Part shown: positions 14,169 through 57,640 of the stretch, piece after piece
Numbering within the stretch: position 1 is the stretch's first letter
How the letters are laid out: each line of letters begins with the position of its first letter
Assembly (NCBI GenBank): GCA_043732705.1
Contig: JAYTHE010000040.1
Span: 3,250-67,249, forward strand
Direction: 5' to 3'
Length of the DNA: 64,000 nucleotides
DNA from: Candidatus Omnitrophota bacterium
GTDB lineage: Bacteria > Omnitrophota > Omnitrophia > Omnitrophales > Aquincolibacteriaceae
Position numbers and translations under genes: made by a program
Notes under the pieces: generated by a model
The model's database searches: none
What the model saw: only the letters and a program-made list of their open reading frames with translations
Told to the model about the DNA's origin: nothing

Positions 14169-14186
14169 CTTCAAGGCAATTTTCGA

Positions 14187-15434: not shown

Positions 15435-15449
15435 AACTTTTTGATTAAG

Positions 15450-15487
15450 GAAAGAGCTTCCGTCTGCTCAGACAGTTGTGTCCTTTC
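15450..15487 (+). repeat. 3' hairpin element carrying the loop motif TCTGCTCAGACAGTTG (family also at 57584-57599 and 59678-59695)
   Basis: GAAAG...CTTTC arms enclose TCTGCTCAGACAGTTG, 16 nt after the fabF stop codon. Confidence 0.3.
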
Positions 15488-15660
15488 GGCGCAAAACTCG
15501 CATCCGTAAATTTCTTTCTTAAATCAAAACTAAAATCTCATTGGTAGGCTTTTAATCGTGCTCGTTTCGCTTTCGCTCAACATCACACTGTTAAAGAATG
15601 GCTCGTGAAGCTCGCCTGGTTTTTAGCCGGGACTGACCCCAATGCTCTTTGGCTTAGAAT

Positions 15661-16515
15661 TTAAAGTATCTCTACTTCTTCAATCTCTCCGGCCTCCGGT
15701 CTCCGGTCTCCGGTCTGGCGCTGTCCTCGGATAATTCCGCGTTTGGATTCTTCGATAAACTTCACAAAATGTTTAGATTCAGGGCTTTTGCATTCCTTTT
15801 TAATTTCTTCCAAGGCTTGAGTGACATTTAATCCCGAGCGGTACAGCAATTTAAAAGCATGTTTGATTTCTGTGCGAGTTTCCAGATTAATCCTTGCGCG
15901 GCGCATACCCACGACATTTAAACCTTGTGCGATTCCCGGCCGGCCGCCGCACATGATGTAAGGCGGGATATCTTTATTGAAAGCGGATAAAGCAGAAACC
16001 ATCGCAAGCGTTCCGATACGTGAGAATTGATGGAAGCCGGTCATGCCCGAAAGAAAAGCTTTGTCTTCAACATGGCAATGGCCGGTGAGTGAAGCTTGAT
16101 TGACCATAATGATGTTATTTCCTAAAACACAATTATGCGCGATATGGCAATAAGCCATGATGTAATTTTCATTTCCGATTACAGTCGAGGTTCCGGGTTC
16201 GGTGCCGCGGTGAATGCTCACAAATTCACGAATGACATTCTTGTTTCCGATTTTTGTAAAGGTAGGCTCATTTTTAAATTTAAGATCCTGAGGCTCATGT
16301 CCAATAACAGCATGCATATGGATGGTGTTGCCATCACCAATTTCAGTGCCGTGACAAAGCGTGGCGCCGTGTAAAATTTTATTATTCGACCCGATTTTGA
16401 CACCGCTCGCAATAATCGTATTTGGCCCGATTTCATTCCCATTTCCAATCATGACATTTTTACCGATGATTGAGAGAGGGTGAATCTGGTTGGATTGAAT
16501 TGAGGTTTGCATGCC
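15661..16515 (-). CDS. lpxA: UDP-N-acetylglucosamine O-acyltransferase (LpxA) with a roughly 20-aa C-terminal tail extension
   Basis: Left-handed beta-helix hexapeptide repeats throughout, and the C-terminal helical domain ...KHAFKLLYRSGLNVTQALEEI... I chose the start at the internal Met (MQTSIQSNQIHPLSIIG) rather than at the ORF-track start of 16581. Confidence 0.85.
   Translation of the reverse strand, partial: GMQTSIQSNQIHPLSIIGKNVMIGNGNEIGPNTIIASGVKIGSNNKILHGATLCHGTEIGDGNTIHMHAVIGHEPQDLKFKNEPTFTKIGNKNVIREFVSIHRGTEPGTSTVIGNENYIMAYCHIAHNCVLGNNIIMVNQASLTGHCHVEDKAFLSGMTGFHQFSRIGTLAMVSALSAFNKDIPPYIMCGGRPGIAQGLNVVGMRRARINLETRTEIKHAFKLLYRSGLNVTQALEEIKKECKSPESKHFVKFIEESKRGIIRGQRQTGDRRPEAGEIEEVEIL
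15694..15717. repeat. Tandem heptanucleotide repeat (CTCCGGT, three perfect units plus a partial fourth) inside the 3' tail of lpxA
   Basis: CCTCCGGTCTCCGGTCTCCGGTCTGG read directly; it encodes ...TGDRRPEAGE... in the LpxA C-terminal extension. Confidence 0.8.
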
Positions 16516-16853
16516 GCAAATTATAGAGGGGAAGGCAACAGGCGAAAAGCTCAATCTAATCACTTGGCGAATATGCATCAATATTGGCGTTATAGTAGTG
16601 ATATTGTTAGTGACTAGAGAGAAGAGAACGATTGCTCAAATATAAAAGCTTTTATCATTGATTAACTTACATGATCAATATTGACCAAATTCATATTTAA
16701 GTCATTTAAATATAATAGGTTGCGAACATAAAATCACAGTGTCTATTCTTGCAATTCTAAAAGTCGCCTGCTATATTCCTAAGGTCGATTAAAAACTATT
16801 CACGCGAAATCATAAATAGAGCTCATATAACAGTCATTTTTGCAGGGGAAATA

Positions 16854-19800
16854 ATGTTTCAATTAAAAAATAAGACTGTTCGCGCATCAGTCGCTGTATT
16901 TACTGCAGTTTGTCTTTCATTTACACAGGCTGCAATTTCAGCGCCTATTTTTTCGGCGTCCGCTCCCGCCGAAGTATCTTTGCCCGATTCACTTCGCCTT
17001 GACCGGGCGGTGGCATTGAAAGTCCCGAGCGCAATCGCAACCATTGAAAAACTTCAGCCCGGTAACGGTAAAACAATTTTTCACATTCAAACCGCTCACG
17101 GACATTATCAGGCTCAGCAAAATATTAATTTGCTTCTCAAAGATCTTGAAAAAAATTACGGTGTCAAAACGGTTTTGGTTGAGGGTAGTTCGAATCCACT
17201 TAATCCCGAAATTATTAACTTTTTCCCCAAAGATCATGAGAAAACCATGCGCGTTGTTGATTTGCTTACGCGCAAAGCGATTTTAAAAGGTTCTGAAATT
17301 TATTTGCTTGAGTCCGGAAAAGCCCGCGGGTTTGGCATTGAAGATGAGGTCGCTTACAATCAAAACCTGCAAGACTTCGCTTTGGTCATTCGCGCGCGTG
17401 AAGAAAGTAAACAGTTTCTTGATAACCTCGAGCAAAGCATTGAAAGGCTTTCCGCGGTTTATCTCAGCACGAATTTGCGCTCGTTTTTAAAGCAAGTTGA
17501 AAGAAAAGAAACCGGTAATATTCCGTTTGATGCTTATTTGCAGCAGCTTAAAATTGCCGCAAAAAAATATGCCGAAATTGACCTTGCTGATCCGGCCTGG
17601 CAATTGCTGTGGCCCATGCTGACGCGTGTTTTTACGATTGAAAAACTCGAAAAGAAAATCGATGCGGTACAGTTTGATCAGCAGAAAAAAGATTTTCTCA
17701 CCGCCATTAAACCGTATACCGCCGTGGAGATTCCTCGGGAGTGGGCGAAGAACTCTCCCGAGGTGGCGCAGCGGGTTTCAGTCTATGAAGAAGTTAAAAG
17801 CCTCCTGGATTTAAAAGACTTAAGCGCTAAGCTTCCTGATCCGGACACGTCAATTCTTTTTGAAAACCTTGTGAAGTCCTTGCCCGCTAACTTCAACTAT
17901 GCCCGCTTTTCTTCCGTGACTTCCTTCTGCGGTATCTTGATGATCAAAAGTGAAATCAAGGCTGACGTGTTAACTGCTGAAATTTCAAAAATGGAAGATC
18001 AAATCACCGATAAGCTTGCTGAAAAGAAAACAGCCAAGGAACTTGTTGCCGTTCTTAAAGATTACCGCATGCTTCAAAAGCTTTTTTCGCTTGAGCTTGC
18101 GCCTTCTGATTATGAAGTAATCGCGGGATCGGAGACCGGCGGCCGGAGGCCCGAGAGCATTCAGCCATCTGTTCTTGCTAATCGACTTCAAACTCTTGGG
18201 GCTTCGGCCTCCAGCCTTCCAGCTAAACAAGTTCGCGGAGTTAAATTTAACCACGTCAAAGAATTAGATAGTTTGTTCAACCAAGCGTTGAAATTTTATG
18301 CCGGCGCGCGCCTTCGTGATGGAAAAATGCTCGCACGTATCGAAGAACGTTTAAAAGAAACCCATGCCGACAAAGTGGCTGTTATCACGGGCGGTTTTCA
18401 CTCTGAACCTTTTGCGAAATATTTTGAGCAGCGCGGCTATAACTATGCTTTGATGACCCCGAAAATTACTACCGTTGACGCCGAAGGGCGTAATGACTAT
18501 TTGAATGCCATGATGATGCTGGCAACCGCACAGCGATTGCAGGCTCGGAGGCTCGAGGCCCGAGGCCCGAGAACTGAATCCGCCACCATTGAAGGCAAGA
18601 GTGTGGCTGCAATGGATGCAGTAGAGCTCAGTTTACTTGCTAAGCCTGTTTCCGAAATTGTACGCAGCGAGCCGTCACTTAGTGTTGAAGCAACCGCGGT
18701 GCGTGCCCTCTGGTCAACCGAAAAATCTTCTTTACATTCTGCTTCTTCTTCAGCATCAAGCACGACAAGAGCAACAGCACGCGTTGAAATTACTGGCGCC
18801 CGCTCCGAAATGCGCGTTTCCGAATTTCCTAAGCTTGGGGAAATACCGCTGGAAGTTGATGCCTCTCAAGCAGAAAAGCAGGTTTTTATTGGTAAAGAGG
18901 AATGGCTTGGCGACCGTGAAAATTTGCAGCCGATTTTCATTCAAGGCAGAGGCTATTTGGCGATTATAGTAACTGGACCCGGGAAGTGGAAAGACAATGT
19001 AATAACCTCATTTTTCATTTCATATGATGCTGGCGGAAAAATCAACAACGTGGTTTCTCTTCCCGGCGGTAGTTTTCATGCGAAATCTAAACAAATCGAC
19101 GTGAAAGTTTCTGTGATCGATGAGTTTGCAACTGCGACCGATGTTCAGCTTTGGGTGACTTTAAAAAATCGCAAAGCCCGTATATTTCGAATTAAGGAAG
19201 ATAAGGGGGGCGAATTTGCCCTTTACAAAGCGCTTAAAGCTTTAATCACTTCCCAAAAGCGGACAGTTTCGGTAGCTGATGGAAATGCTGGAATCAAAAA
19301 AGCAAAATCTCAAATTGTGGACGCATTAAAAAACTTAGAAAGTAATCCCACTTACCAACAAGCGCAAAGACTGTCCCACTCCAAAACTGCGCCGAAACAG
19401 CGTTCAGAACGGGTCATCACCGATTACCAGCGAACGGTGCGAGGACTTGCGCTACTTCCTTCTCGCTCCGAAGCGCGCAAATTTTCCGACGTCGCTCGTT
19501 TTGTCGTCGGGAAGTTTGTTAATGCGGTGATGATTACAGGCCTAGCTGTGGCGGAAATCGTGAGAATAACTTTTTTGTCTTTTTTGATGCTGTCCTTCGC
19601 TTACGTGGCGAGAGAAAGAGCTCAAGGACCCAATAAAACTCCTCTTCAGAATAATGAGGCTGTTCGTGGGAATGTGGTTAATCTGGAGATAATCGGCCGC
19701 CACCGCTCCGAAATGCGGCCATTTATACATCCCGAGAGGATTTCTAATGATTTAGATTTGCTAACGGCTGTGCAAGCTTCAAGAGAGTATCAATCTCTCG

Positions 19801-22800
19801 ATAAGGGTGATGAGTTTTTCGTTTCCTTCTACTTGGGGCATGACCTTGTGGGCTGGATTAGAGCGCGGCGCGAGAAGGGCGAGCAACCTTGGCTTAGCAG
19901 TTACAACCGTCGCAACGATCCTGAACATAAAATGATAGGTTCCATGGCTAGGGATGCCGAAGAAAAATATGTCAGCGGCGGGAATCAAATCAACGAACTC
20001 ATTAATTTAATGCATGAAGAATCGGTCGCTCGGAAGCCGCATATTTATTTGTCAGACGAACATCCCCTGGTTCGCTACAGTAAAAAACGCCAAGCAATAG
20101 TAACTAAAACAATTGCAAGGCTTCAAAGCGCAGAAGCTGGGTTATTAGCTTTGAAAGCACAGCTGGATCGGTCAGTTGACGCACGGCAACCTGAGCCGGA
20201 AAAATTCGATCAAGAGCGATTCAATAGCGCTGCCACAGAAAGATTGGTTCAAAAATTTATTCAGCCTGCCATCGAAAATTTAAAGCTGGGCAAGTTGTCC
20301 GATGCATGGAAGTTGATTCAAACTGCAATTGGTTTGATGAACGATACAAACGGGCTGGAAAGCGGCGATGGATTGAGGGTGATTCAGTTACTTCGTGCGA
20401 CCCGAAACGCAATCAGTATATTTGCTGATAAGTACGGCGAGATAGTTCTAGAAGCAGATATGCGCGCTGAAACTGCTGAAGCTCGCTCCGAAGTGCGAAC
20501 AGTCACGCTAAGAGTTTTAACGGCGGCTATTATGGGATTCGCATTTTCTGCGATTGCGGAGCAAAAACCCGTGGCGCCGCCCGTGCTGCGTGCTGCTACG
20601 GACACGGATCCTCAATTGCTACGCAAAATCGAAGCAGTTCTTCGCCAGCCCATGCCCACTGGAAACTCAGCAGGTGCTATCCAAAGTCGAAAAAATTTAG
20701 AGACTGCCAAGGAAGCAGCGCTTAAAGAGTTGGCCGGAATCTCCAATCCCTCTGCTCTTTATGGATTATTGGCGGCACTTTTAGGAGATAAAAATCATCC
20801 CGCTTCATTGAAAGCGTTAGTTGCGGAAACGCTTAAAAAGGGTTTAGAAGCGCCGCAGTCCTCTTCTACGGTCAACGCGGTATTGAAGATTTTGTTTCAA
20901 ATTGCAAAGGATAAAAATAACCCGAATAGGACGCAAGCCATTGGAGTGCTTTCTCAAGCCGCTGAAAAGCAACGAGCGGTCATCGGTGAATTTGGAATGA
21001 GGGAAGTCAGGCTCATAATCGATGGTGCTGATAAAGAAGCTGCAGCCAAGCGTAATCTCCTTATCGCCGAACAGGAAAAAATCATCCGTGCCGTTAACCC
21101 AGCAGATAAGGAAGCCTGGGAAAAAAGAAAGAATGCACTTCTTGTTTTGCGCGGCTTCGTAGAAGATCCGGCTTTTACGCCGGGAGACAGAAGCAACATT
21201 CTCAAGCTTGTTGTTGGCTATTTGATAAGTGCTCCCGATGCAGTCGATCAACAGAAAGGAAAAGATCAAAATGGCCCTTGGGCTAAAGTAGCTGCAGCTC
21301 AGGTTCTTGAGTCAATTGGCGGAAATGAGGCTCGTGACGCTTTAAATCAATTTGTCACTGATCCGGCGCAAGATCCAAAGGTTAAAGCGGATGACGCTTT
21401 CCAGAAGGTTCTTAAAAAATTCTCAGGCCGCTCCGAAATGCGCACGCCTGAAATTACAAACGTTCGCTTTGTTTTGCCCAGCAAGATTCAGGGGAATCAA
21501 GTTCGATCTGCGGCAGCTTACGCGGTTGAAGAGGGATTACTAACGGGAACTGAGTCGTGGTGGCAAGAAATTCATACGCGGGGCAATTTAGATTTGACTC
21601 AACGCATTCTAAATGATTCGCCCAAGTTTTCGTATGAGGAATTATCGAGGTTCGCGCGCGCTTTGCCACCAGCCACGGCTTATGTCGTCGTCGTGAGAAA
21701 AGGAGATTTTGAACAAGCTAAAGAATTTTTATCGATCAAGCGGCCGATGATTTTTTTGGTTGAAGATAAAGCCGATGAAGAGGGATTGAGGAATTTAGCG
21801 ATTAAGCAGTCGGTTGCACATCTTGTTTCAGTAGCTTATGTTTCTGATTGGAAAAAAGAAAATGTTGCGTCGCTTGTGCGCGAAGAATTAGACCGAGTCG
21901 ATGGCCGTGATTTAGTGCCCCGTTTAGACCGAGTAAATATTTATTTGTCCGGGCATCTGTTAGATAGTACTAATGAAGGAAACGCACGGGCCATGCTGGC
22001 GGACAAAGGTGGGTTGTTGCGGGAGCGAGTTGGGAGTTTAGCTCGTTATTATAGATTGTATGGAGGGCAAATAAAAAGTCCTCTAAAAAGCTGGGCTGAC
22101 TTTGATGTTGCAGCAGGTAAAAATTCTCTTGAAATTATTCGTTCCGAATCGCGAGCAACTGTAACAGAAATTGAGTTTACGGGAGAAGTTCTGGTTCCCT
22201 GGCGTATCGAACTAAAATTAAAGGACGGGAAATCGGTTGAGCTTAAACTGAATCAGGAAAATAAGGCAGCGGCCAAAAAGATGTTCGCTCAAAGCTTACC
22301 TATCAGACCGCTTGTTTATACAATCAATGATGCTAGTTCAGGCACAAATTTCGGAAGTATTCAAATGAATCTTAATGAGAATCCTAAAGATCTTACAGAG
22401 AAAAATCAAATAAGCGACATCCGTATCGTTAAAGATTCCGTGGCCGTGTCTGGAAACAATACCCTTGTTAAAGAAGTGAAAGCATGGTTGGAAAGTTTTG
22501 AAAAAGAGAAGCAGGCCTTTGAGGGTAAGAGCTTAAAGCTTTCTCCTTTTCAAGTTGACGATATTCCTCTCGAAACGAAATTTCATCCGGTAACCCATAG
22601 CCTTATATCAGCTCGATTAAATTTTAGAGGGAATAATCCGGTTCAAGTGGGACTTGAGGCTGATTCTGCAAGTCTTGTGGCGATGTCAAGCGCAGGCGCT
22701 GAGCCGCGCGAAACAAGAATAACTTTTGATGTGACTGTTAGAAAACCGCTTACTTTGCCGCAGCCCGTGGGAAAAATTCATGCTACCGCTCGTGTCAGCA

Positions 22801-25800
22801 CAAATGGTTTTACATTAGATGAAGTTCGTAAAACGCAAACAAATCCTGCGGCCGTTGATGCGCAGGGCATTGTTTCTACGGCTGCGGCATGGCTTGCAAC
22901 TGAAGATCTTAGCGAGAGCAATCCAAGACTCCAGCCGGCCCCCGCCCGCTCCGAAGTGCGGGGCGATGCAACCCAACCTGTTGGCGGAAATCTTTTTACT
23001 AGACCCATGCCCCGGCGTGATGCTCTTAAGACGGCGGGTTTGCTTGGATTGATATCAGCTTTGGGCAGAACACATGTCATCGGCGCAACGGGTGATGTTT
23101 GGTTTGGTGATTCAAATTCGGCAAATCTTGCTTACACGAGCGAGCAATTTGTTAACACCGCAGATGGACGTACTTTTTGGATTTTTGTTGCGAAGCAGAA
23201 TATTCAATTTCAAACCAAACCTGATTTGCAGAACGCTGCTTGGTCTCCCTTATCTGGCACGCTTGCGGATGGAAATGTGGCCGTTATTGAACTGCCTAAA
23301 AGTGCTAATGGCAAAACAGGTTTTGGGCGCGTTGCTCGCGCTACGACGCCATCTCAGAATCAAAGACAGGCAATAACCCAGCTAAGTAATTCCAAGCCTT
23401 TGCCGTCGGAAGTACAAACAATTTTGAATTCAAAGGCTTACGCGGGCAAGAAAGTGACTGTTGTCCAACGCTCCGAAGTGAGGGGAACAGTTTTTCAAAT
23501 TGTAGATGCGTTTGAGGTATCGAAAACAGAAGCGAATTCCGAAAGTGGAGCCTATGCTGGCCCTTACTTATTGCCATTTTTGGAGCGAATGCCGGAACGG
23601 TTCAAATTTTATAAAGCGCTTCCTCAAAGTATTAATTTTGTTCACCCTATGGATGAGACCGATATTGGAGCCGTCAATTTTTTTGCCTCCATTAACACGG
23701 CATCGAAAGTGGATACAAGCAGTCTAGGTGCGGTGAAGGCAAGACGGTTCAAATTTGAAGATGAGTTCGTCGGAAAAGAAATGCTTTTTGTTTACGATAC
23801 TACAGCACAAGAAATCCATTCTATTTTCGCCCTTGATTCCAGAAACAGAATCGTAGGGGGAATCATGTTTAAGAAGTTACCAAGCGATATACTCAAACCC
23901 GAACGGCCATTTCCATTGGATCCAATTATGACGCAGGCTCTTGACCATGCCGGAGAGAGCCGGGTGCCTGCTAAAATTAAGTATAGTCCTCAAACAAAAG
24001 ATTTGGAGATTGAGTTTAATACTGTGGCTGAGCCCGAGCAGCAAGTTGGGCCATCTCTGCCTGACGCTATTTTAAAATTTAATTCTGGGTACGAAGGATT
24101 CACGGATAAGCCCATCGATTCAGCCGATGGAGCGCATGAATTTACTTTTGACACCATTGCAATAGCGGCACAGGGCCTGGATGAGCTTATTGAAAGCATT
24201 GCCCAATTAGAGGGTAATGAGGGTGTAAGTAGTGTTTACGAAAGAATCAAGGCACCACAGGGACGGATCTCTTTAATTTTTGATTCAAAAAATAATCTTT
24301 TAGCAATTCAATCTGGTGCGGCGGGAGCTAAAGCACGAGATGCTATTGTTTTTGAAAAGAAATCGGGTGCGATCTCCGAAGTTGTGGCGCGATCGAGCGC
24401 GATGGCACAAACCTTAACTGTTTTACCTACCGTTCCTGCGCCGATCAAAGGCTTATTTGGTTTTAGTGGAAAAGATCACTGGATTACTTTTACTGCGCGC
24501 TCGGAAGCTCGTTCTCAAACCGGTGGAGCCGTACGTAACGAATGGAAAATTTCGACGAAAGGTCGTTTTTCTGCCATAAGCCCCACAGGGAAAATGATTT
24601 CATTGGGTGAACGTTCGCCGTTTGAGCGTGTTGTTGAGAAAAGAGTAATTGGAGACAAGCTGATTGTAGTTACGCAAGATCCCAACCAAAAAAATTTGCG
24701 AGTTTTTAATCGGGAGGGGAAAGCTCTTCAGTTAGGTGAGTTTAATGTTATTTATGCTTTTAAGGAGTACCGCGTTGTTGGTGGTGATCGGTTAATCGTT
24801 CGCATGCGGGACGCCGGCTCCCTTTTTATTTATGATTTGGCAGACGGATCTCAAATACCTTTGGATGGCCACCCTGCTATTCGTGATAGCGGATCCATTT
24901 TGACAAATGAAATGGACGTGCGTGGCAATACTGTTTATGCCCTACATGACGGTAGTTGGTATGGTTATTCAATTCGAACCGGAAAATTAGTTAGGGATGG
25001 GCATCCGACCAAACGTGGCACAGCCTATATACCAACCGGGCTAGATATTGCTTGTTACGGTGTCATCGCAGCAATGATTGCGATTGGCTCGCTTCTTATA
25101 CCCTTAGCACATCCGAATGGGGTCAATTTTGCAGCGACCCTAGCTCAAATTGTTTCCCGCTCCGAAGCGCGGCTGTACACAAATCATGGTGGTAATGAGC
25201 CGCTTAAGCAGTTCCAAGAAGATGTTCAAGCTGGAAAAATTTCTCGTGGTAGCTGGCTTGAAGTCCGGCTCAGCAGAATTGCCGCCGTCCAAAAAGGACA
25301 ATTCGAGGGTTTCGAAAACGGGCAGCTGATACTCAAAGATAGCCGTTTCAATCCTCCCGCGATGAATGAACATTTTAATCTCAAAGAAATTGAAGCCATC
25401 GTCGTGAGGGGGCAATACGAGCATTACTTCAATATTGGGAAGAGTTTGGCAATATTTTTAATCCCGCTGTTCCTCTCTTTCGTCATAGCTTATAAATATA
25501 ATCTTCATCGAATGGGGATGGCTGTTTCGGCCACGATAGCTGTGGTTGCTAGTTTTATTTTGTCGCGTTTTCTCCCCGCTTCTGCTCCAGTGGAAGTTGT
25601 TGCTGTCGCAGAAAAAATTAAGGATATCATTGCCAAGCGTTTGGGCGCCAACCCAGAGGTTGTGACGGAAGACGCTCAGCTTGTCGAAGGTTTGAATGCC
25701 GATTCCTTGGATCTTATCGAGCTTATTAATAAAATTGAATCGCAATTCAAGATAGATATTTCAGATGCTGAAGCAGAAAGACTTGCCACAGTCGGTGATT

Positions 25801-28800
25801 ATATTCAACTTGTACAAAAAAAACTCGCCCGCTCCGAAGCGCGAGAAGATTATCGTCCTCAAAAACCAGGTGAAGAAAAACCGGCGCCGGGTATGTTCGG
25901 TCAAACACGCGTATTTGGCCGCTCCGAAATGCGGGAAATTCTCGCAGCATTTCCGACGGAATCACCGACGCACGTCGATTTTGAAAGACTATTTGCCGCC
26001 TACTTGAGCGATGTTTATACAGCTTGGAAAATTGACGGCGATGACATTAAAGATAAAGCCGATCGCGCATATGTGAAGCAGATGGCATTGCAGCATTTGC
26101 GCCAAAGATTTTTAGGCACAGGCACGGTCGATCCGAATGGGCCGAAGGCACCTTTGCATATTCGCCGTAATAAGGGATCGCTGAACGTGGTTTCAGCCGA
26201 AGGTAATGCCGTAGTCACTTCGCAGTTAACCTATAATGAATTGCGCGAAGCGGGCGCGTATAAGCGTTCTGACCTTGATACTGATCCTAGAAGAGATGAG
26301 TATCTTAAGGCTGCTTCAGGAGCTTGGGTTACTTGGAATACATTGGATGGCGGCATCGGCGAAAGTTTAATGCGTGAAGAATGGTTGCTGAATAAGGGGC
26401 TGAGGATGCGCTTGAAGGATATTCTCTCTCAAGCTGAGCAAGCGGATACGAAATATCAAGGTCCATTGGCGGCGCTTAAGCAAGCTGAAGAAAATGGTGA
26501 AACCGAAGAAATTATTAAAGCGCTGCGCGAAATTGAAAAATTAGCCGGTTATGCAGATCCGCTTCAATTGAAAATGGGCGCAAAAGGGACGGATCTTGGC
26601 CGCTCGGAAACGATTCGCGGTAATCAATATTTTGTTGGTGATGCGGAAAGACGTTTGCTCTTAATCGCGGATATTGCGACCAAGAGAAAATTCGGGAAAA
26701 TTGCCTTTCAGCCGTTTGTGAATTATCAATCCGCAGAATCTTATGTAAATCTTATGCAGCAGCCCTATCTATGGGATGTGATTGAAGGTAGTGAACATCC
26801 CCGGACTTATCAGCAAGCTCTCGAAGATGCCGGAGTTGAGATTAAAACACCGCTTGAACAGCAAGATTTGCCTAAATTTGAAATTGAAGACGGTGCGAAG
26901 GCCGGGCTTCCGACTTTGGATTCAAAAGTGCAAGATAAAGGCCAGCCGGGCGGACATGGACAATGGGGCGCTTTTTATATGATGGATTTCACCGAAATTG
27001 CTCCGCCAGATAATGGTTTTCATAATGTGCGCTTTTTTGGTAACGGTGACAACAATCATGGAAATCCCGAGCCGATTGTCGTTGGTTTTGCTATCGTTCA
27101 AAAGAAACCCATTTTGAAAATTACGACACCTGCTACCGCGATTGATACGAAGGGCGGAAAAGAAACCCTGCGTCTCATTCAACTTAAGGAACGGGTGACC
27201 AGAGTTTTGGATCAATGGGAAGAAATTGGCGCTAAAAACGCGGGACAAATTGACTTATTTTACAAAGCAGGGCAGCGCGGCGGTTTTGGCGAACAGGGCC
27301 GGCAGCATTTCAACACCAACTTGTTCGTATTTGATGAAGAGCAAATGCATCCGATTTTAAGAAAAATGCGTGAAATTGTCGGTGAGGATGAATTTTTAGA
27401 TGCGGTTATGCCGCTGTTGTTTGATAAAAGTGATAAAGCCAAAACTATTGACGGTAAAAAATTCGTATCGATGGACTCAGCCATTGGATATGTCATTCAT
27501 AATTTGAATACGTTTTACAGCACCGATCCACGGCTTGAAGAATTGCGCCGGGAATACGGCCCGCAATTGCTTTATTACATGGATTATGATCGTGGTATTT
27601 TTGCGCCCAAAAAGAAGGCCGAAGATCAATACCTGCAAGAGCGTACGGATTATTATGGTCCTTTTGATGAGGAGGCTAAAAATTTCCATGATGCCGAACC
27701 CGGGCTGACACCACCGGGGTTTGATGTTACCGATCCGGTCGAAAAAGACAGCAAAAAAGCCGATTCAAAATTTTGGGGCGAAGTGCAGCATTGGAATGAT
27801 TCGTTTGGAATATCGCGTGTCAGAAAAATGCAATCACTGAAGGTTGAAGGGCGTGTGACGATTCGCAATGCCGAGTATGTCGGGGATGTCGTGATTATCA
27901 ATCGTTTTGGCCGTGAAGACAAAACAAAACCCGCCAAACGCGTTATTTTAAGCAATGGTGTTTATTTCGAACAATTGAAAGCACTCGGTTATTGGGCCGA
28001 AGATCATTTGCTCTTAGAGAATGTGACAATCACGATTGATGAAAGTGGAATTCTGTCGACAAAACCAACCCGCTCCGAAATCCGGAATTTGGATGAGCTA
28101 TTAGCTGAATTGAATAAAGCCGTTCGAGCACCTCTGAATTACAGAGGTGCCGATGCTATGCCGCCAACGACAACGCTAGTCGCACTTGCGCCTAATTTGA
28201 ATGTTGTTATTCAAGTGAGGGATGGAGTTGGCACATCGAGAACAGTGCTTACTTATACTTTAGGAGCAAGAGAATTAGAAACAAGAAATGTATTGCCTGG
28301 CGGACGAAACGCACAGAGCTTCCCTATTGGCGGCGTGGCGTCGTATACCGTTAATTTTCAATTGCCTGCGGCTGACGATGCGAAGGTCGTGGCAGATGCG
28401 CTTAAGCGCGGGTTGCCTCAGTTCGTGACTGGCGATTTTAACGTAGTGCCAGCAGGCAATTCCGGAAGCATCGCCATTACTTTTACACCGAAACGCACAC
28501 AACGTACCGAGTTGATTGAAGCCGCTATTCCTCAAGTTATGGAAGCAATCTATCAGCTGGCGAGGTCAAGAGGGCGGAAAGTCGTAGATTATCAGTTGGT
28601 GGGCTATTCCGGTATCGTATCGAAACAGACATACGGTGCAATGGACCGCTTTCCGGTTACTTTTTCCGCCGAAACCGAACAAATAAGACAAGTGGTTCGC
28701 GCGGCGCTTGATAAAATTTTAGATCATTATGCTGATGGCAGGGTTGAATCCATTGAGGTGAAATTGCAAGATGACGCGCTCACAACAAGCGAGACCCCGT

Positions 28801-30635
28801 CTATCGCCATTGTTTTGAAAACCCGCTCTGAACTGCGGGATCTTAAGTCTGAGCCAATTTTGCTTGGAAAATTCACCCCATTTCTTATCGCTGGCGAAAC
28901 GGAGGACCCTCTCGCAATTACACCTCAGCTGGATGAGTCAAAGCAGGCTGTTGGAAATTTACAGTTTCGCAAAGTCCACTTGGGCAATTTGTCAGCTACA
29001 GCTATCGAAGAAATTAGAGATGCACTGGGACAATCAGGCCTGGACCGCGGTCATCAGGCGTTTTTTGAAAGTAATGCAAGCGGACTTGAAAAAGTTGACG
29101 CCGTAATTCGCAGCGATGGACTTTTAACTGCTTTGATCGGAAAGCAAGCGGGACATGGCGCTGTAACGCATATTGAGTTTGCGGTTCCCCTCGTTTATGT
29201 CGGAGAATATACAGTTCGGCTTGGTTATCCATCACATGGAACTTTAACAATTCCAATTGCGAGTGTTGTCAAAATTGACACAGCGGGTGGCATCATAAAT
29301 ATCGTTGCAATTGAGCCCGTGACGTCTGCCGCACGCTCCGAATTGCGGCTTCAATTGGCAGACAATACTAATCCGCAGGTACGCGCAATTGTTAAACCAT
29401 CCCTCGTTAAAGCTAGAGTAACAACTCCGGATCAATTTAATGTTCCAATTGCTGCAGGGCAAAGTATTGCAGATTCTGTGCAATCGTTTGTCTCAACTAA
29501 TTATGGACATCAAAACTTGAATGATTTGCTTGCTAACACAGGTTCCACGGGTATTAAAGTTACCTTTTTAAATTCCAAGAAAGGAATACTGTTCAGTACG
29601 GAGCTTCATTCAGATCCTTCACCAGCGGGACGAGGTACTCAATATACCGTTCTCAATTCATTTGGCACAAGAAAACCAAACATGATTACGAGCGTTTTAA
29701 TTGAAGTTGTGCGCAGCGAATTGCGCGAGCAAGTTTCGCAAAGACAGTCATCTGTTGAAACGCTCAGCGAAATTTTGCTCGATTTTAAAGCCGGAATTCT
29801 GCCTTATAATGAACTTGTCGATTTATTGAAGGGTTCGCCTGCCCAGGTTTTATTGGATGCCGCAAAGGCTGCCGGAATTGATTTGAAGCTGCCCGGCAGT
29901 ATCGATAACAGCACAGAGGATGTGCTTTCCGCGCTTTTCCCAGTGGACTTAAATGAGGCGATTACAATCAATGTTCCAAAAATTACGGTGCGTGTCAATA
30001 ATGAAAAACCGACTTCGAAGAATATTACGGGAGCGGTGATTCAATCGGCAGAGACGGTGATTGCGATGAAAAAGCAAGCTCCTCAAGCGTTGATTGCACA
30101 TTTGCGCGCTTTAAGTGAAAGAGAATTTTTGGATTTGGCGATTTCGGATAAGCCCGGTGCCGAATCTAAATTTGACTCTGCGTTGAAACAGTTTTTAGGC
30201 TCGGCAGCCGCCGGTGTTCCAAGTCTTGAGGAAAGAAAAATATTGTTTGGGAAAATTCGGCTCCATACAAAAGCAAGCCTGGCTGCTTTTGTTAAAGATC
30301 AAGGCGGGGCAGTTGCAATTATGCTGACAGGCCATAACGACGAAATTTTTACCAGTCTCCAAGGCGGTTTTCGCTTTAAAGTGAAAGGCGCGAAAGGCAA
30401 AGCTCTTTCTGGAAAGGCCTTTTTTGCCATGCCGGTTGTCAGTGTCGGCGCCGCAAAAGTTATGGCGAATATACGCGGTGTTGATGTTTCAATTGCCAAC
30501 TCGGCTATCCCAACGTACTTTAAAGCGCTTGATATGCAGGTTAACCGTGATAGTGACGGAGCGTTTGTATTCAGTGCGATCGCCCAACTTCTGCAGGCCA
30601 TTTTTAACGCTCAATACATCGGAACCATGGCTTAG
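16854..30635 (+). CDS. Giant secreted/membrane multidomain protein (4593 aa). It carries a signal peptide and at least four predicted transmembrane segments. Recognisable regions are a ChaN/Tiki-like N-terminal region, HEAT-like repeats, a beta-propeller-like region, an ACP-like domain and a UDP-sugar-pyrophosphorylase-like domain. A periodic RSE-hydrophobic-R motif recurs throughout.
   Basis: A single uninterrupted ORF in the six-frame track with the N-terminal signal peptide MFQLKNKTVRASVAVFTAVCLSFTQAAISA. Domain calls are from my reading of motifs (see findings). Confidence 0.8.
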   Translation: MFQLKNKTVRASVAVFTAVCLSFTQAAISAPIFSASAPAEVSLPDSLRLDRAVALKVPSAIATIEKLQPGNGKTIFHIQTAHGHYQAQQNINLLLKDLEKNYGVKTVLVEGSSNPLNPEIINFFPKDHEKTMRVVDLLTRKAILKGSEIYLLESGKARGFGIEDEVAYNQNLQDFALVIRAREESKQFLDNLEQSIERLSAVYLSTNLRSFLKQVERKETGNIPFDAYLQQLKIAAKKYAEIDLADPAWQLLWPMLTRVFTIEKLEKKIDAVQFDQQKKDFLTAIKPYTAVEIPREWAKNSPEVAQRVSVYEEVKSLLDLKDLSAKLPDPDTSILFENLVKSLPANFNYARFSSVTSFCGILMIKSEIKADVLTAEISKMEDQITDKLAEKKTAKELVAVLKDYRMLQKLFSLELAPSDYEVIAGSETGGRRPESIQPSVLANRLQTLGASASSLPAKQVRGVKFNHVKELDSLFNQALKFYAGARLRDGKMLARIEERLKETHADKVAVITGGFHSEPFAKYFEQRGYNYALMTPKITTVDAEGRNDYLNAMMMLATAQRLQARRLEARGPRTESATIEGKSVAAMDAVELSLLAKPVSEIVRSEPSLSVEATAVRALWSTEKSSLHSASSSASSTTRATARVEITGARSEMRVSEFPKLGEIPLEVDASQAEKQVFIGKEEWLGDRENLQPIFIQGRGYLAIIVTGPGKWKDNVITSFFISYDAGGKINNVVSLPGGSFHAKSKQIDVKVSVIDEFATATDVQLWVTLKNRKARIFRIKEDKGGEFALYKALKALITSQKRTVSVADGNAGIKKAKSQIVDALKNLESNPTYQQAQRLSHSKTAPKQRSERVITDYQRTVRGLALLPSRSEARKFSDVARFVVGKFVNAVMITGLAVAEIVRITFLSFLMLSFAYVARERAQGPNKTPLQNNEAVRGNVVNLEIIGRHRSEMRPFIHPERISNDLDLLTAVQASREYQSLDKGDEFFVSFYLGHDLVGWIRARREKGEQPWLSSYNRRNDPEHKMIGSMARDAEEKYVSGGNQINELINLMHEESVARKPHIYLSDEHPLVRYSKKRQAIVTKTIARLQSAEAGLLALKAQLDRSVDARQPEPEKFDQERFNSAATERLVQKFIQPAIENLKLGKLSDAWKLIQTAIGLMNDTNGLESGDGLRVIQLLRATRNAISIFADKYGEIVLEADMRAETAEARSEVRTVTLRVLTAAIMGFAFSAIAEQKPVAPPVLRAATDTDPQLLRKIEAVLRQPMPTGNSAGAIQSRKNLETAKEAALKELAGISNPSALYGLLAALLGDKNHPASLKALVAETLKKGLEAPQSSSTVNAVLKILFQIAKDKNNPNRTQAIGVLSQAAEKQRAVIGEFGMREVRLIIDGADKEAAAKRNLLIAEQEKIIRAVNPADKEAWEKRKNALLVLRGFVEDPAFTPGDRSNILKLVVGYLISAPDAVDQQKGKDQNGPWAKVAAAQVLESIGGNEARDALNQFVTDPAQDPKVKADDAFQKVLKKFSGRSEMRTPEITNVRFVLPSKIQGNQVRSAAAYAVEEGLLTGTESWWQEIHTRGNLDLTQRILNDSPKFSYEELSRFARALPPATAYVVVVRKGDFEQAKEFLSIKRPMIFLVEDKADEEGLRNLAIKQSVAHLVSVAYVSDWKKENVASLVREELDRVDGRDLVPRLDRVNIYLSGHLLDSTNEGNARAMLADKGGLLRERVGSLARYYRLYGGQIKSPLKSWADFDVAAGKNSLEIIRSESRATVTEIEFTGEVLVPWRIELKLKDGKSVELKLNQENKAAAKKMFAQSLPIRPLVYTINDASSGTNFGSIQMNLNENPKDLTEKNQISDIRIVKDSVAVSGNNTLVKEVKAWLESFEKEKQAFEGKSLKLSPFQVDDIPLETKFHPVTHSLISARLNFRGNNPVQVGLEADSASLVAMSSAGAEPRETRITFDVTVRKPLTLPQPVGKIHATARVSTNGFTLDEVRKTQTNPAAVDAQGIVSTAAAWLATEDLSESNPRLQPAPARSEVRGDATQPVGGNLFTRPMPRRDALKTAGLLGLISALGRTHVIGATGDVWFGDSNSANLAYTSEQFVNTADGRTFWIFVAKQNIQFQTKPDLQNAAWSPLSGTLADGNVAVIELPKSANGKTGFGRVARATTPSQNQRQAITQLSNSKPLPSEVQTILNSKAYAGKKVTVVQRSEVRGTVFQIVDAFEVSKTEANSESGAYAGPYLLPFLERMPERFKFYKALPQSINFVHPMDETDIGAVNFFASINTASKVDTSSLGAVKARRFKFEDEFVGKEMLFVYDTTAQEIHSIFALDSRNRIVGGIMFKKLPSDILKPERPFPLDPIMTQALDHAGESRVPAKIKYSPQTKDLEIEFNTVAEPEQQVGPSLPDAILKFNSGYEGFTDKPIDSADGAHEFTFDTIAIAAQGLDELIESIAQLEGNEGVSSVYERIKAPQGRISLIFDSKNNLLAIQSGAAGAKARDAIVFEKKSGAISEVVARSSAMAQTLTVLPTVPAPIKGLFGFSGKDHWITFTARSEARSQTGGAVRNEWKISTKGRFSAISPTGKMISLGERSPFERVVEKRVIGDKLIVVTQDPNQKNLRVFNREGKALQLGEFNVIYAFKEYRVVGGDRLIVRMRDAGSLFIYDLADGSQIPLDGHPAIRDSGSILTNEMDVRGNTVYALHDGSWYGYSIRTGKLVRDGHPTKRGTAYIPTGLDIACYGVIAAMIAIGSLLIPLAHPNGVNFAATLAQIVSRSEARLYTNHGGNEPLKQFQEDVQAGKISRGSWLEVRLSRIAAVQKGQFEGFENGQLILKDSRFNPPAMNEHFNLKEIEAIVVRGQYEHYFNIGKSLAIFLIPLFLSFVIAYKYNLHRMGMAVSATIAVVASFILSRFLPASAPVEVVAVAEKIKDIIAKRLGANPEVVTEDAQLVEGLNADSLDLIELINKIESQFKIDISDAEAERLATVGDYIQLVQKKLARSEAREDYRPQKPGEEKPAPGMFGQTRVFGRSEMREILAAFPTESPTHVDFERLFAAYLSDVYTAWKIDGDDIKDKADRAYVKQMALQHLRQRFLGTGTVDPNGPKAPLHIRRNKGSLNVVSAEGNAVVTSQLTYNELREAGAYKRSDLDTDPRRDEYLKAASGAWVTWNTLDGGIGESLMREEWLLNKGLRMRLKDILSQAEQADTKYQGPLAALKQAEENGETEEIIKALREIEKLAGYADPLQLKMGAKGTDLGRSETIRGNQYFVGDAERRLLLIADIATKRKFGKIAFQPFVNYQSAESYVNLMQQPYLWDVIEGSEHPRTYQQALEDAGVEIKTPLEQQDLPKFEIEDGAKAGLPTLDSKVQDKGQPGGHGQWGAFYMMDFTEIAPPDNGFHNVRFFGNGDNNHGNPEPIVVGFAIVQKKPILKITTPATAIDTKGGKETLRLIQLKERVTRVLDQWEEIGAKNAGQIDLFYKAGQRGGFGEQGRQHFNTNLFVFDEEQMHPILRKMREIVGEDEFLDAVMPLLFDKSDKAKTIDGKKFVSMDSAIGYVIHNLNTFYSTDPRLEELRREYGPQLLYYMDYDRGIFAPKKKAEDQYLQERTDYYGPFDEEAKNFHDAEPGLTPPGFDVTDPVEKDSKKADSKFWGEVQHWNDSFGISRVRKMQSLKVEGRVTIRNAEYVGDVVIINRFGREDKTKPAKRVILSNGVYFEQLKALGYWAEDHLLLENVTITIDESGILSTKPTRSEIRNLDELLAELNKAVRAPLNYRGADAMPPTTTLVALAPNLNVVIQVRDGVGTSRTVLTYTLGARELETRNVLPGGRNAQSFPIGGVASYTVNFQLPAADDAKVVADALKRGLPQFVTGDFNVVPAGNSGSIAITFTPKRTQRTELIEAAIPQVMEAIYQLARSRGRKVVDYQLVGYSGIVSKQTYGAMDRFPVTFSAETEQIRQVVRAALDKILDHYADGRVESIEVKLQDDALTTSETPSIAIVLKTRSELRDLKSEPILLGKFTPFLIAGETEDPLAITPQLDESKQAVGNLQFRKVHLGNLSATAIEEIRDALGQSGLDRGHQAFFESNASGLEKVDAVIRSDGLLTALIGKQAGHGAVTHIEFAVPLVYVGEYTVRLGYPSHGTLTIPIASVVKIDTAGGIINIVAIEPVTSAARSELRLQLADNTNPQVRAIVKPSLVKARVTTPDQFNVPIAAGQSIADSVQSFVSTNYGHQNLNDLLANTGSTGIKVTFLNSKKGILFSTELHSDPSPAGRGTQYTVLNSFGTRKPNMITSVLIEVVRSELREQVSQRQSSVETLSEILLDFKAGILPYNELVDLLKGSPAQVLLDAAKAAGIDLKLPGSIDNSTEDVLSALFPVDLNEAITINVPKITVRVNNEKPTSKNITGAVIQSAETVIAMKKQAPQALIAHLRALSEREFLDLAISDKPGAESKFDSALKQFLGSAAAGVPSLEERKILFGKIRLHTKASLAAFVKDQGGAVAIMLTGHNDEIFTSLQGGFRFKVKGAKGKALSGKAFFAMPVVSVGAAKVMANIRGVDVSIANSAIPTYFKALDMQVNRDSDGAFVFSAIAQLLQAIFNAQYIGTMA
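18542..18572. repeat. GC-rich tandem 7-8 nt repeat (GGCTCGGA GGCTCGAG GCCCGAG GCCCGAG) inside the giant gene
   Basis: Read directly; it encodes ARRLEARGPRTE. A related GC-rich block GGAGACCGGCGGCCGGAGGCCCGAGAGC lies at 18131-18158. Confidence 0.7.
25608..25826 (+). other. Acyl-carrier-protein-like domain embedded in the giant protein (phosphopantetheine-attachment DSL motif)
   Basis: AEKIKDIIAKRLGANPEVVTEDAQLVEGLNADSLDLIELINKIESQFKIDISDAEAERLATVGDYIQLV matches the ACP consensus (LGxDSLD...ELV...E..F...I.D......TVGD..DYI). The candidate Ser codon TCC is at 25704-25706. Confidence 0.6.
25921..28067 (+). other. UDP-sugar pyrophosphorylase (UDPGP family)-like domain embedded in the giant protein
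   Basis: ...VTWNTLDGGIGESLMRE... (about 26343) resembles the UDPGP G-rich loop (LNGGLGTSMG). ...GQPGGHGQW... (26946) matches the PGGHGD motif. The C-terminal part resembles the left-handed beta-helix tail of UGPase. Confidence 0.5.
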
Positions 30636-30654
30636 TTTTCTCCGTTTTTAAAGC

Positions 30655-30695
30655 CCGCTGCCTCGAAAGGGTGGCGGGTTTTTTATTTTCCACGG
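30655..30695 (+). terminator. Rho-independent terminator after the giant gene
   Basis: AAAGCCCGCTGCCTCGAAAGGGTGGCGGGTTTTTTATTTT: a GC-rich stem followed by a T-run, 20 nt after the stop codon. Confidence 0.5.
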
Positions 30696-57572: not shown

Positions 57573-57640
57573 AGCTCGTTAAATCTGCTCAGACAGCGGA
57601 AGCTTCGCTCCGAACTCGCAGCTTAAACGAGCTGTTTTTG
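57573..57640 (+). terminator. Long stem-loop followed by a T-run after the YqaJ-like gene; its loop carries the TCTGCTCAGACAG motif
   Basis: AGCTCGTT (57573-57580) pairs with AACGAGCT (57626-57633), followed by GTTTTTG. The loop contains TCTGCTCAGACAGCGG and CGCTCCGAACTCGC. Confidence 0.45.

Follow-up and report, generated by a model that had tools for sequence, protein, structure and literature searches.

MARTX toxins of Vibrio and relatives are very long chains with conserved ends that carry strain-variable, unrelated effectors, which are set free when the linkers between the domains are cut. In CdiA and Rhs proteins, a short peptide (VENN and PxxxxDPxGL, respectively) marks the border between the conserved and the variable region, and its coding sequence is thought to guide module swapping. 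Cyanobactin PatE carries hypervariable cassettes flanked by protease recognition sequences that are near-identical even in DNA. For Omnitrophota, giant ORFs of >20-30 kb (Archaeovorin, Dockerin-type) with adhesin, C39, and SecA-like domains have been described, and the question has been raised whether their products are cut into pieces (10.1101/2023.11.21.568195, PMC10066038); missing knowledge of the cleavage points is said to block long-ORF analysis (10.1101/2023.11.21.568195). We found no junction motif for these giant ORFs in either paper (10.1101/2023.11.21.568195, PMC10066038).

Here, we analysed a window of 64,000 nucleotides from an Omnitrophota bacterium (GCA_043732705.1, contig JAYTHE010000040.1, positions 3,250 to 67,249), to which all coordinates refer. 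It contains a 13.8 kb gene whose sole clear Pfam match is an ACP and in which the pentapeptide R-[S/A]-E-(L/V/A/M)-R forms a conserved joint between unrelated modules that fold independently. This gene is part of a large family of modular "polyproteins" that is restricted to Omnitrophota and was previously undescribed; our literature searches turned up neither the motif nor the family.

Like MARTX toxins, the family has variable cassettes between conserved N- and C-terminal regions, but Pfam and NCBIfam scans of the window protein detected neither RTX or glycine-rich repeats nor a C80 cysteine protease domain, an N-terminal signal of the Sec type stands in for type I secretion, the linker takes the form of a fixed pentapeptide, and the cargo looks like metabolic, Tat-exported, and lipoprotein modules, not toxins. 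A TIKI-fold domain, which is an effector in MARTX, is here the conserved head. With picorna-, poty-, and flavivirus polyproteins the family shares unrelated proteins in one ORF, a short site at each junction, and a hydrolase domain in the chain; it differs in being chromosomal and bacterial, in its strain-hypervariable cassettes, and in a TIKI-fold candidate protease, the cleavage being one that we infer. CdiA and Rhs proteins have one such border, whereas the Omnitrophota proteins have up to 26 junctions, and their modules are complete enzymes or exported proteins, with no immunity genes or toxin domains seen. PatE cassettes are peptides of 6-8 residues, whereas these are folded proteins of 30-1,000+ residues, and proteases and chemistry differ. 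Integron arrays likewise hold unrelated cassettes that are bounded by a short conserved sequence and vary between close strains, but here the cassettes are in frame in one translated chain, and the site measures 9-15 nt, is under peptide-level selection, and comes with neither an attC-like hairpin nor an integrase. The giant ORFs mentioned above come from the same phylum and are also long, poorly annotated, and equipped with membrane helices; unlike them, members of the family described here span 1-8 kaa and have a TIKI-like head.

Family members share a plan of signal peptide, ~560-aa N-domain, hypervariable cassettes, and ~300-aa C-domain, which in the window is laid out as follows (cassettes named in the text included):

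16854..30635, forward strand: polyprotein gene, 4,593 codons plus stop, continuously open (ORF list)
16854..16943, forward strand: signal-peptide-like segment, aa 1-30, hydrophobic core aa 11-29 (hydropathy scan)
17016..18533, forward strand: conserved N-domain, aa ~55-560, TIKI/TraB/erythromycin-esterase-like fold
18534..18800, forward strand: low-complexity, Ser/Thr/Ala-rich linker between the N-domain and junction 1 (from the translation)
25602..25823, forward strand: ACP cassette core, aa 2917-2990 (Pfam PP-binding, 5e-10; NCBIfam ACP, 2.4e-20)
25935..28070, forward strand: UDP-glucose-pyrophosphorylase-like cassette, aa 3028-3739 (712 aa), motif on both sides
29727..30632, forward strand: conserved C-terminal domain, aa 4292-4593, ~300 aa, ending in ..GTMA
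30650..30682, forward strand: strong intrinsic-terminator-like hairpin, 14 pairs plus T run, 15 nt past the stop codon

The gene is probably a single transcription unit; promoter- and terminator-like sites inside it are no more frequent than in shuffles. Its exact product is also recorded in a Logan assembly. In the AF2 model, a helix at residues 4-25 gives way to a disordered stretch, and relatives carry a similar signal-like segment. Membrane helices lie between modules at aa 884, 1217, 2726, 2861, and 2889 (hydropathy scan). The gene is chromosomal and sits amid conserved housekeeping genes (fabF-lpxA ... tyrS), with tyrS downstream. Among 36 loci examined, fabF, lpxA, and S1 were the only recurrent neighbours (10-13 of the 36), and no conserved neighbouring protease or recombinase/integrase was found. 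Rfam and tRNA scans of the window returned nothing.

The sequence-only reading had counted about 19 copies of R-S-E-x-R at regular spacing in this gene. The repetition is real: there are 16 strict in-frame copies of RSE.R, against 0.073 expected from composition and a maximum of 2 in 2,000 shuffles. The surplus in the earlier count corresponds to a variant with a one-residue insertion (RSETIR at 26601) and two RSE-only remnants, and the spacing is irregular, with successive intervals of 221, 80, 260, 315, 237, 269, 174, 343, 220, 224, 30, 717, 251, 170, and 126 aa (range 30-717). The strict copies are:

18801..18815, forward strand: junction 1, RSEMR (CGCTCCGAAATGCGC), aa 650
19464..19478, forward strand: junction 2, RSEAR, aa 871; a two-helix membrane hairpin opens the following module
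19704..19718, forward strand: junction 3, RSEMR, aa 951
20484..20498, forward strand: junction 4, RSEVR, aa 1211; signal-peptide-like start TVTLRVLTAAIMGFAFSAIA at 20499-20573; HEAT-repeat cassette
21429..21443, forward strand: junction 5, RSEMR, aa 1526
22140..22154, forward strand: junction 6, RSESR (CGTTCCGAATCGCGA), aa 1763
22947..22961, forward strand: junction 7, RSEVR, aa 2032; then a Tat-like signal (..RPMPRRDALKTAGLLGLISALG, 22962-23063)
23469..23483, forward strand: junction 8, RSEVR, aa 2206
24498..24512, forward strand: junction 9, RSEAR (CGCTCGGAAGCTCGT), aa 2549
25158..25172, forward strand: junction 10, RSEAR, aa 2769
25830..25844, forward strand: junction 11, RSEAR, aa 2993; the ACP match ends two residues earlier
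25920..25934, forward strand: junction 12, RSEMR, aa 3023
28071..28085, forward strand: junction 13, RSEIR, aa 3740
28824..28838, forward strand: junction 14, RSELR (CGCTCTGAACTGCGG), aa 3991
29334..29348, forward strand: junction 15, RSELR, aa 4161
29712..29726, forward strand: junction 16, RSELR (CGCAGCGAATTGCGC), aa 4287; fixed last junction before the C-domain, with Ser encoded by AGC, likewise in relatives

The 9-mer CGCTCCGAA underlies most of these sites. It occurs 13 times in the window against about 1 expected, a number that no shuffle reached, and exact-match counting confirmed the twelve copies inside the gene, every one in the same frame. The remaining copy, at 57606 in a hairpin, equals the chance expectation of one per window, and two stretches that had been taken for degenerate GC-rich variants of the motif (18126-18157 and 18542-18572) turned out to be in-frame insertions rich in GC that lie in variable loops of the N-terminal domain. 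Codon use at the window motifs is strongly skewed: the first Arg is CGC in 15 of 16 copies (24% gene usage, P = 8e-9), Ser is TCC in 13 of 16 (14%, P = 2e-9), and Glu is always GAA (16/16 vs 68%, P = 0.002). No two modules of the window are similar to each other, which refutes the recent modular duplication considered earlier and places the motifs at module borders, not inside one repeat family.

The cassettes correspond to entire proteins. The ACP match stops two residues before junction 11, in line with the sequence-only reading, and two membrane helices precede the ACP core (25434-25574, hydropathy scan); across the family, ACP matches stop 0-7 residues short of the next motif. The idea that this cassette is the cell's housekeeping ACP was rejected, as only few family members carry one. 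The 712-aa unit is indeed bracketed by motifs at 25920 and 28071 and contains the decayed junction RSETIR (26601-26618). Its designation as UDPGP-like found no support in the window module alone, which had no Pfam match and no phmmer match in the PDB, and gained it once relatives were added: these carry PF01704, and a profile of the module plus relatives matches UGPase structures at 1e-8. The same cassette is common to distant members of the family (P0027, P0037, P0036, and P0101; phmmer, E<=1e-184). Further family cassettes are hexokinase, glutamate dehydrogenase, PGM, HAD, and cupin. Tat signals directly follow the motif in 13 of 952 cases, compared with 0.26% at random positions, and lipoboxes do so in 3 of 952, compared with 0.01%.

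Single-sequence scans of genomes and metagenomes were empty and a 1,249-aa fragment used as homologue query had zero matches, whereas alignment-based scans succeeded. The N-domain search recovered 549 representatives at E<=1e-30, with family members up to 7,823 aa long; in the 150 listed matches, the N-domain is N-terminal or nearly so unless the protein is a fragment truncated at that end. The motif is retained in relatives, with RSE.R present in 122 of 151 family proteins, in as many as 26 copies, and an unbiased gapped 5-mer count ranked RSE.R (670) and RAE.R (175) at the top. The logo of the motif reads [SAP]-R-[SA]-E-[LVAM]-R-[SAT], RTE.R and RPE.R occur as lineage variants, and the flanks consist of small and polar, linker-like residues. 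Motif-rich ORFs from 60+ loci each have the N-domain or start at a contig edge; the exception, L054, closely follows a short gene that encodes the N-domain. The internal modules (814, median 210 aa) fall into 769 clusters, of which 695 are singletons, whereas the terminal pieces are conserved across the family, at a median of 618 aa for the N piece and ~300 aa for the C piece. Several long members (P0088, P0140, P0083, P0105, P0086, and P0098) keep the N-domain catalytic residues with few or no motifs, so the N-domain is not strictly tied to the motif. A search of these motif-poor proteins for an alternative junction motif found none; the apparent motif of P0088 is a 17-aa tandem repeat.

The N-domain, the sole conserved enzyme-like domain, has an alpha/beta TIKI fold whose core is a parallel beta-sheet, although Pfam TraB_PrgY_gumN, Erythro_esteras, and Cofac_haem_bdg (and NCBIfam) gave no match to it at E<=0.1 to 1. 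Its candidate catalytic residues are H77, H82, E110, E163, R488, and H516; H82, E110, E163, R488, and H516 are conserved at 98-100%, and among 141 sequences H77, H82, E110, E163, and H516 are conserved at 90-100%, with equivalence judged from the sequence pattern. The 28 residues between H82 and E110 equal the His-Glu spacing of Bcr135 (H85/E113) and of RRSP (H3902/E3930), the latter a TIKI-fold domain that occurs in MARTX toxins (PMC6254334). Members of the TIKI/TraB/PrgY/GumN/erythromycin-esterase/ChaN superfamily are typically extracytoplasmic or membrane-associated; the superfamily also contains esterases and non-enzymes. Compared with known members, the N-domain stands out by its size of about 560 aa, which includes a large helical insertion, and by always being fused to a cassette array. 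It is the leading candidate protease for the chain.

The motif is selected at the peptide level. Among one-base in-frame variants of CGCTCCGAA, 83 of 101 (82%) are synonymous, compared with 26% expected under neutrality, and the codons for Glu and the last Arg are at or near background (both Glu codons and all six Arg codons are used) while both residues are invariant. The first two codons behave differently: the first Arg is CGY in 83% of family sites against a background of 46%, and Ser is TCC in 53% against 20% and AGY in 3% against 33%. At the last junction, which adjoins the C-domain, the codon at this position is AGY or ACT in 8 of 12 complete genes, including all five of the window's clade. 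Cassette content varies between strains: in one species, the alleles L002, L003/L064, and L006/L007 are set apart by entire cassettes, and homology between them stops at ..TCCGA| and restarts at |AAGCGCGG, i.e., inside the motif, while another breakpoint, at aa 632, falls away from any motif. In addition, a 105-aa cassette is common end to end to L003 and L060, which have different neighbourhoods. The metagenome loci showed no further strain-level structural variants, and the three alleles of this one species suggest recombination at motif sites.

We weighed several explanations for these patterns. That the motif arose by chance, from compositional bias, or through recent tandem duplication of a single module has virtually no probability left: it is refuted by the 16 copies against 0.07, a 9-mer count beyond all shuffles, and dissimilar modules. 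In addition, the density of the 9-mer class is 0.33/kb in the sense direction of family genes and about 10-fold lower outside them (0.03/kb), and the class is nearly absent from the antisense strand. A signal in the nucleic acid itself, as the sequence-only reading had considered, does not hold in pure form given the synonymous variants and the AGC last junction, although the CGY/TCC bias keeps part of it alive. One form of it is a DNA recombination site, an "in-frame integron" of 9-15 nt of which the peptide is merely the translation. The codon identity in the window, the phylum-wide bias, homology breakpoints within the motif, cassettes common to different contexts, and contigs that often terminate inside family genes agree with such a site, but the preponderance of synonymous variants, the background-like codons of two invariant residues, a last junction that retains Ser through AGC, and the lack of flanking conservation or hairpins beyond the 15 nt and of a conserved integrase or recombinase nearby make it very unlikely; it is refuted as the sole cause and enters the best explanation as a second layer. 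Still less probable is an RNA or translation signal, by which 2A-like ribosome skipping, mRNA cleavage, or internal re-initiation would yield separate chains without a protease. It could account for the synonymous constraint on the first two codons, for the export signals directly after the motif, and for position x, where 11 of the 16 copies in the window have a possible start codon (ATG, GTG, TTG, CTG, or ATC). Across 230 family sites, however, x is a possible start in only ~43%, with GCG most frequent; the window motifs have no upstream Shine-Dalgarno-like sequence or start pattern, no consistent stop follows them in the +1 or +2 frame, conserved flanks and Rfam families are absent, the peptide is unlike the 2A consensus D(V/I)ExNPGP, and the exact bases are dispensable because the last junction is of the AGC type. 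As for the DNA-level component, cassette exchange explains the CGY/TCC bias of exchangeable junctions better than an RNA signal does.

We also regard it as unlikely, if less so, that RSE.R is an uncut linker or docking motif in one very large, partly membrane-threaded multi-domain protein, where it would act as a hinge or be bound, uncut, by the N-domain or another partner, with its arginines helping to set topology. A consistent in/out threading through the inter-module helices can be traced that would leave the ACP and the UDPGP-like unit cytoplasmic, an uncut multi-pass protein of alternating topology is allowed, some family members lack the motif, the TIKI superfamily includes non-proteolytic members (PMC6254334), and discussions of giant Omnitrophota proteins usually treat them as residents of the cell surface (PMC10066038). 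Against this stand canonical Tat and lipoprotein signals immediately after the motif, which normally require a free N-terminus, complete unrelated enzymes as cassettes that would be tethered without obvious reason, and five strictly conserved residues, unusual for a passive hinge. The border position, the whole-protein modules with export signals, and the family-wide motif favour a junction or processing site, and the sequence-only interpretation is supported in part.

On balance, we lean slightly towards a proteolytic role for the motif: a modular polyprotein would be processed there, possibly by the N-domain, and the 5' half of the motif would double as an exchange joint. Signal peptide, N-domain, the cassette string with its 16 joints, and C-domain would be translated as one chain, which would be cut at or beside the motif by the built-in TIKI-like domain to release the cassettes as separate proteins. 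The first eight coding bases, CGYTCCGA, may serve as a common joint for in-frame gain, loss, and swap of cassettes, which would explain shared codons at exchangeable junctions and not at the fixed last one. We infer cleavage, the identity of the protease, the compartment of cutting, and the mechanism of recombination from the patterns above. With its Sec-type signal, the N-domain would be extracytoplasmic; the Tat signals and the cytoplasmic-type enzymes point to release in the cytoplasm, and the compartments do not yet agree.

For the family of 549 representatives (E<=1e-30), the motif gives explicit candidate cut points and module boundaries. The proteins become divisible into modules for structure prediction, junction-spanning and neo-N-terminal peptides become searchable in metaproteomes, and the motif is amenable to a simple reporter test. 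Should cleavage be confirmed, the family would provide a polyprotein system encoded on a bacterial chromosome, with cargo that can be exchanged, and TIKI-fold enzymes would gain a new class of substrate; even without cleavage, the in-frame shuffling of cassettes in these reduced genomes is striking. More tentatively, and at less than even odds, the family may represent a cellular polyprotein system in which dozens of complete, unrelated proteins, among them cytoplasmic enzymes, Tat substrates, and lipoproteins, come from a single translated chain and are released at R-[S/A]-E-x-R by the built-in TIKI-fold protease, with CGYTCCGA in the same site acting as the in-frame exchange joint of a translated "integron". 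If true, this would be a gene organisation and a mode of shuffling not previously described in cellular organisms.

The giant gene of the window encodes a polyprotein in which a pentapeptide, RSE.R, recurs between modules. The gene and the other features discussed here are:

16854..30635, + strand: polyprotein ORF, open for 4,593 codons
18126-18157 (..GGAGACCGGCGGCCGGAGGCCCGAG..) and 18542-18572 (..CTCGGAGGCTCGAGGCCCGAGGCCCGAG..): GC-rich in-frame insertions in variable loops of the N-domain
57573-57640: terminator-like hairpin after ORF 56969-57562, holding CGCTCCGAA at 57606

Sixteen strict in-frame copies of RSE.R were counted in this ORF (0.073 expected from composition; maximum in 2,000 shuffles, 2), which upholds the strong recurrence noticed in the sequence-only reading at a lower count than its approximately 19. 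The 9-mer CGCTCCGAA, shared by most copies, occurs 13 times in the window against ~1 expected, a number never reached in any shuffle; twelve of these are in the gene and all in frame, exactly as had been read. The only copy outside it, at 57606, had been considered notable, but one per window is chance level. Codon identity within the motif is far above the gene's own usage (Arg as CGC in 15/16 versus 24%, Ser as TCC in 13/16 versus 14%, Glu as GAA in 16/16 versus 68%). The spacing ranges from 30 to 717 aa, and the motif is therefore recurrent, not periodic as had been proposed. The two GC-rich insertions, previously taken for degenerate motif variants, are unrelated to it. P0017, a related protein, has three inserts encoded by palindromes (EYGVRST...TPYAFRRT) at or close to these variable N-domain loops, which points to small repeat elements with in-frame insertion.

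The polyprotein belongs to a phylum-specific modular family headed by a TIKI-fold domain. An exhaustive protein search with this conserved ~560-aa N-domain retrieved 6,231 proteins at E<=1e-3 and 549 at 1e-30; among the 150 matches listed, leaving aside N-terminally truncated fragments, the domain always sits at the N-terminus or close to it, and the proteins are up to 7,823 aa long. Of 151 family proteins, 122 contain RSE.R, with up to 26 copies each, and it ranked first (670) in an unbiased gapped 5-mer count over 336,000 residues, followed by RAE.R (175); a few lineages use mainly RTE.R or RPE.R. The logo of 960 sites reads [S/A/P]-R-[S 75%, A 19%]-E-[L/V/A/M]-R-[S/A/T]. All 46 genomic loci derive from MAGs of Omnitrophota or unclassified uncultured bacteria, and the source of one protein hit, P0016, labels it Roseimicrobium sp. 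The motif-rich ORFs of the fetched loci all have an N-domain or begin at a contig edge, apart from one (L054) that lies directly downstream of a short N-domain gene. Inside family genes, the 9-mer class CG[CT]TCCGA[AG] reaches 0.33/kb on the sense strand, with two antisense copies, versus 0.03/kb per strand outside them. Some long members lack the motif and retain candidate N-domain catalytic residues; one of these, P0088, has a 17-aa tandem repeat (ELRTAQNSHAELPSSRK) at aa 5078-5150 that is unrelated to the junction motif. Several genomes have tandem or multiple paralogues (L026/L049, which are one contig, and L021). Contigs very often end inside polyprotein genes, e.g., at aa 632 of the UBA2337-type allele, leaving many truncated loci, which is consistent with strain heterogeneity. 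The natural C-terminus is also conserved: 98 of 128 long family proteins (within P0019-P0164) end in Ala (..KSA, ..SAA, ..TMA; window 30621-30632), which could be a recognition tag.

The motif, a peptide under purifying selection, forms the joints of unrelated, complete protein modules. Cutting family proteins at it gave 814 internal pieces (median 210 aa), and 695 of 769 clusters were singletons; the conserved clusters were the first piece (median 618 aa) and the last (~270-310 aa), which bears out the earlier placement of motifs at module borders. Recent modular duplication, also proposed, is refuted in the window, where no module resembles another. The cargo that can be recognised is made up of whole proteins, namely ACP, hexokinase, glutamate dehydrogenase, phosphoglucomutase, HAD, metallophosphatase, cupin, HEAT, and UDPGP. 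The only confident domain in the window polyprotein is an acyl carrier protein (aa 2917-2990), which ends two residues before RSEAR, in line with the first reading; across the family, 0-7 residues separate the end of an ACP cassette from the following motif. Distant family members have close homologues of the window's 712-aa cassette among their own cassettes (E<=1e-184), and a profile built with its Pfam-positive relatives matches UDP-glucose pyrophosphorylase structures, supporting the UDPGP-like unit. Canonical Tat signals directly follow 13 of 952 motifs (0.26% at random positions) and lipoprotein signals 3 of 952 (0.01%); the window has a Tat-type start after a motif at aa 2037 (..PRRDALKTAGLLGL..) and a signal-peptide-like start at aa 1216.

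Upstream of the gene are scpA, scpB, pheA, an aminotransferase gene, tyrA, rpsA, and fabF; lpxA is a neighbour on the opposite strand and tyrS lies downstream. The window FabF cluster is annotated as Candidatus Omnitrophota, and the polyprotein, a singleton at 90% identity, is also present on one Logan contig. A strong terminator directly follows the stop codon, and internal promoter- or terminator-like sites in the gene are not more frequent than in shuffles. In close relatives reached via FabF (>=90% identity), the lpxA-tyrS slot always holds a long gene (1,969, 2,672, >2,887, 2,304, and 2,571 aa) that contains RSE.R, with the first ~560 aa (54-71% identity) and last ~300 aa common to all and unrelated middle parts. 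Two relatives have an Avd-like gene (PF05635 23S_rRNA_IVP/PF22296 bAvd, the type of accessory protein that belongs to diversity-generating retroelements) between fabF and lpxA (L058 11459-11674, L060 6045-6416), which is absent from the window. The usual place of acpP is next to fabF; beside the window fabF (14187-15434) there is none within 12615-16581, and the 64 kb holds no ACP other than the cassette. Since few family members have such a cassette, it is probably not the housekeeping ACP.

The conservation has a peptide layer and a nucleotide layer. In 41 genes, 83 of 101 in-frame one-base variants of CGCTCCGAA keep R-S-E (neutral expectation 26%), with 9 and 21 chance matches in the other two frames, and at 230 sites the motif Glu and last Arg are invariant residues whose codon frequencies equal or approach background, which shows selection on the peptide. 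At these sites, CGY encodes the first Arg in 83% (background 46%), and the Ser codon is TCC in 53% (20%) and AGY in no more than 3% (33%). The last junction, before the C-domain, is never exchanged and uses AGC, AGT, or ACT in 8 of 12 complete genes, including all five of the window's clade; thus the exact bases are not required for peptide function and instead follow exchangeable junctions. In all close relatives (L003, L013, L058, L060), the Ser of this junction (window 29712-29726) is AGC or AGT, and cassette junctions use TCC. Of the selection or homogenisation on the DNA or RNA itself that was first suggested, a DNA-level component is upheld, the CGY/TCC bias at exchangeable junctions, which fits cassette exchange better than an RNA signal; the retention of R-S-E speaks against a purely nucleic-acid signal.

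Cassette content changes from strain to strain. In a single species, three alleles (L002; L003/L064; L006/L007) are 99% identical apart from differences of whole cassettes: a 2.1-kb block (membrane module, hexokinase, and second copy of a 145-aa cassette) and a replaced segment of 1-2 kb. Homology stops at ..CG[CT]TCCGA| and restarts at |AAGCGCGG, one junction bears a half-motif scar (RSEAR-STSSG-QAR), and one breakpoint, at aa 632, is away from any motif. A 105-aa cassette is common to L003 and L060 end to end (65% identity) with non-homologous neighbours. No conserved recombinase was found near the polyprotein loci.

We propose, in descending order of confidence, that the motif is a proteolytic processing site, that codons would be shared because sequences are joined within CGYTCCGA when cassettes are gained or lost, and that the N-domain may be the protease. 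Topology is the chief problem for this reading: a Sec-type signal heads the N-domain, whereas release in the cytoplasm is indicated by the Tat signals and the cytoplasmic-type enzymes. An uncut multi-pass protein is a possible alternative to a cleaved chain. An RNA- or translation-level mechanism at the junctions lacks support.

The Omnitrophota literature searched makes no mention of the junction motif or the family, and one paper states that the cleavage points of long ORF proteins are unknown (10.1101/2023.11.21.568195). Among known systems, the closest are MARTX toxins, with their conserved ends, a variable array of effectors, and autoprocessing; viral polyproteins, in which every junction has a consensus site; the junction motifs of polymorphic toxins, peptides whose coding DNA guides the swapping of modules; and integron arrays. 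Defining features of MARTX toxins, polymorphic toxins, and integrons were looked for in the family and are missing, and the junction sites that it shares with viral polyproteins would be cut by a candidate protease with a TIKI fold; we therefore treat it as a distinct form of processed modular polyprotein, outside those systems.
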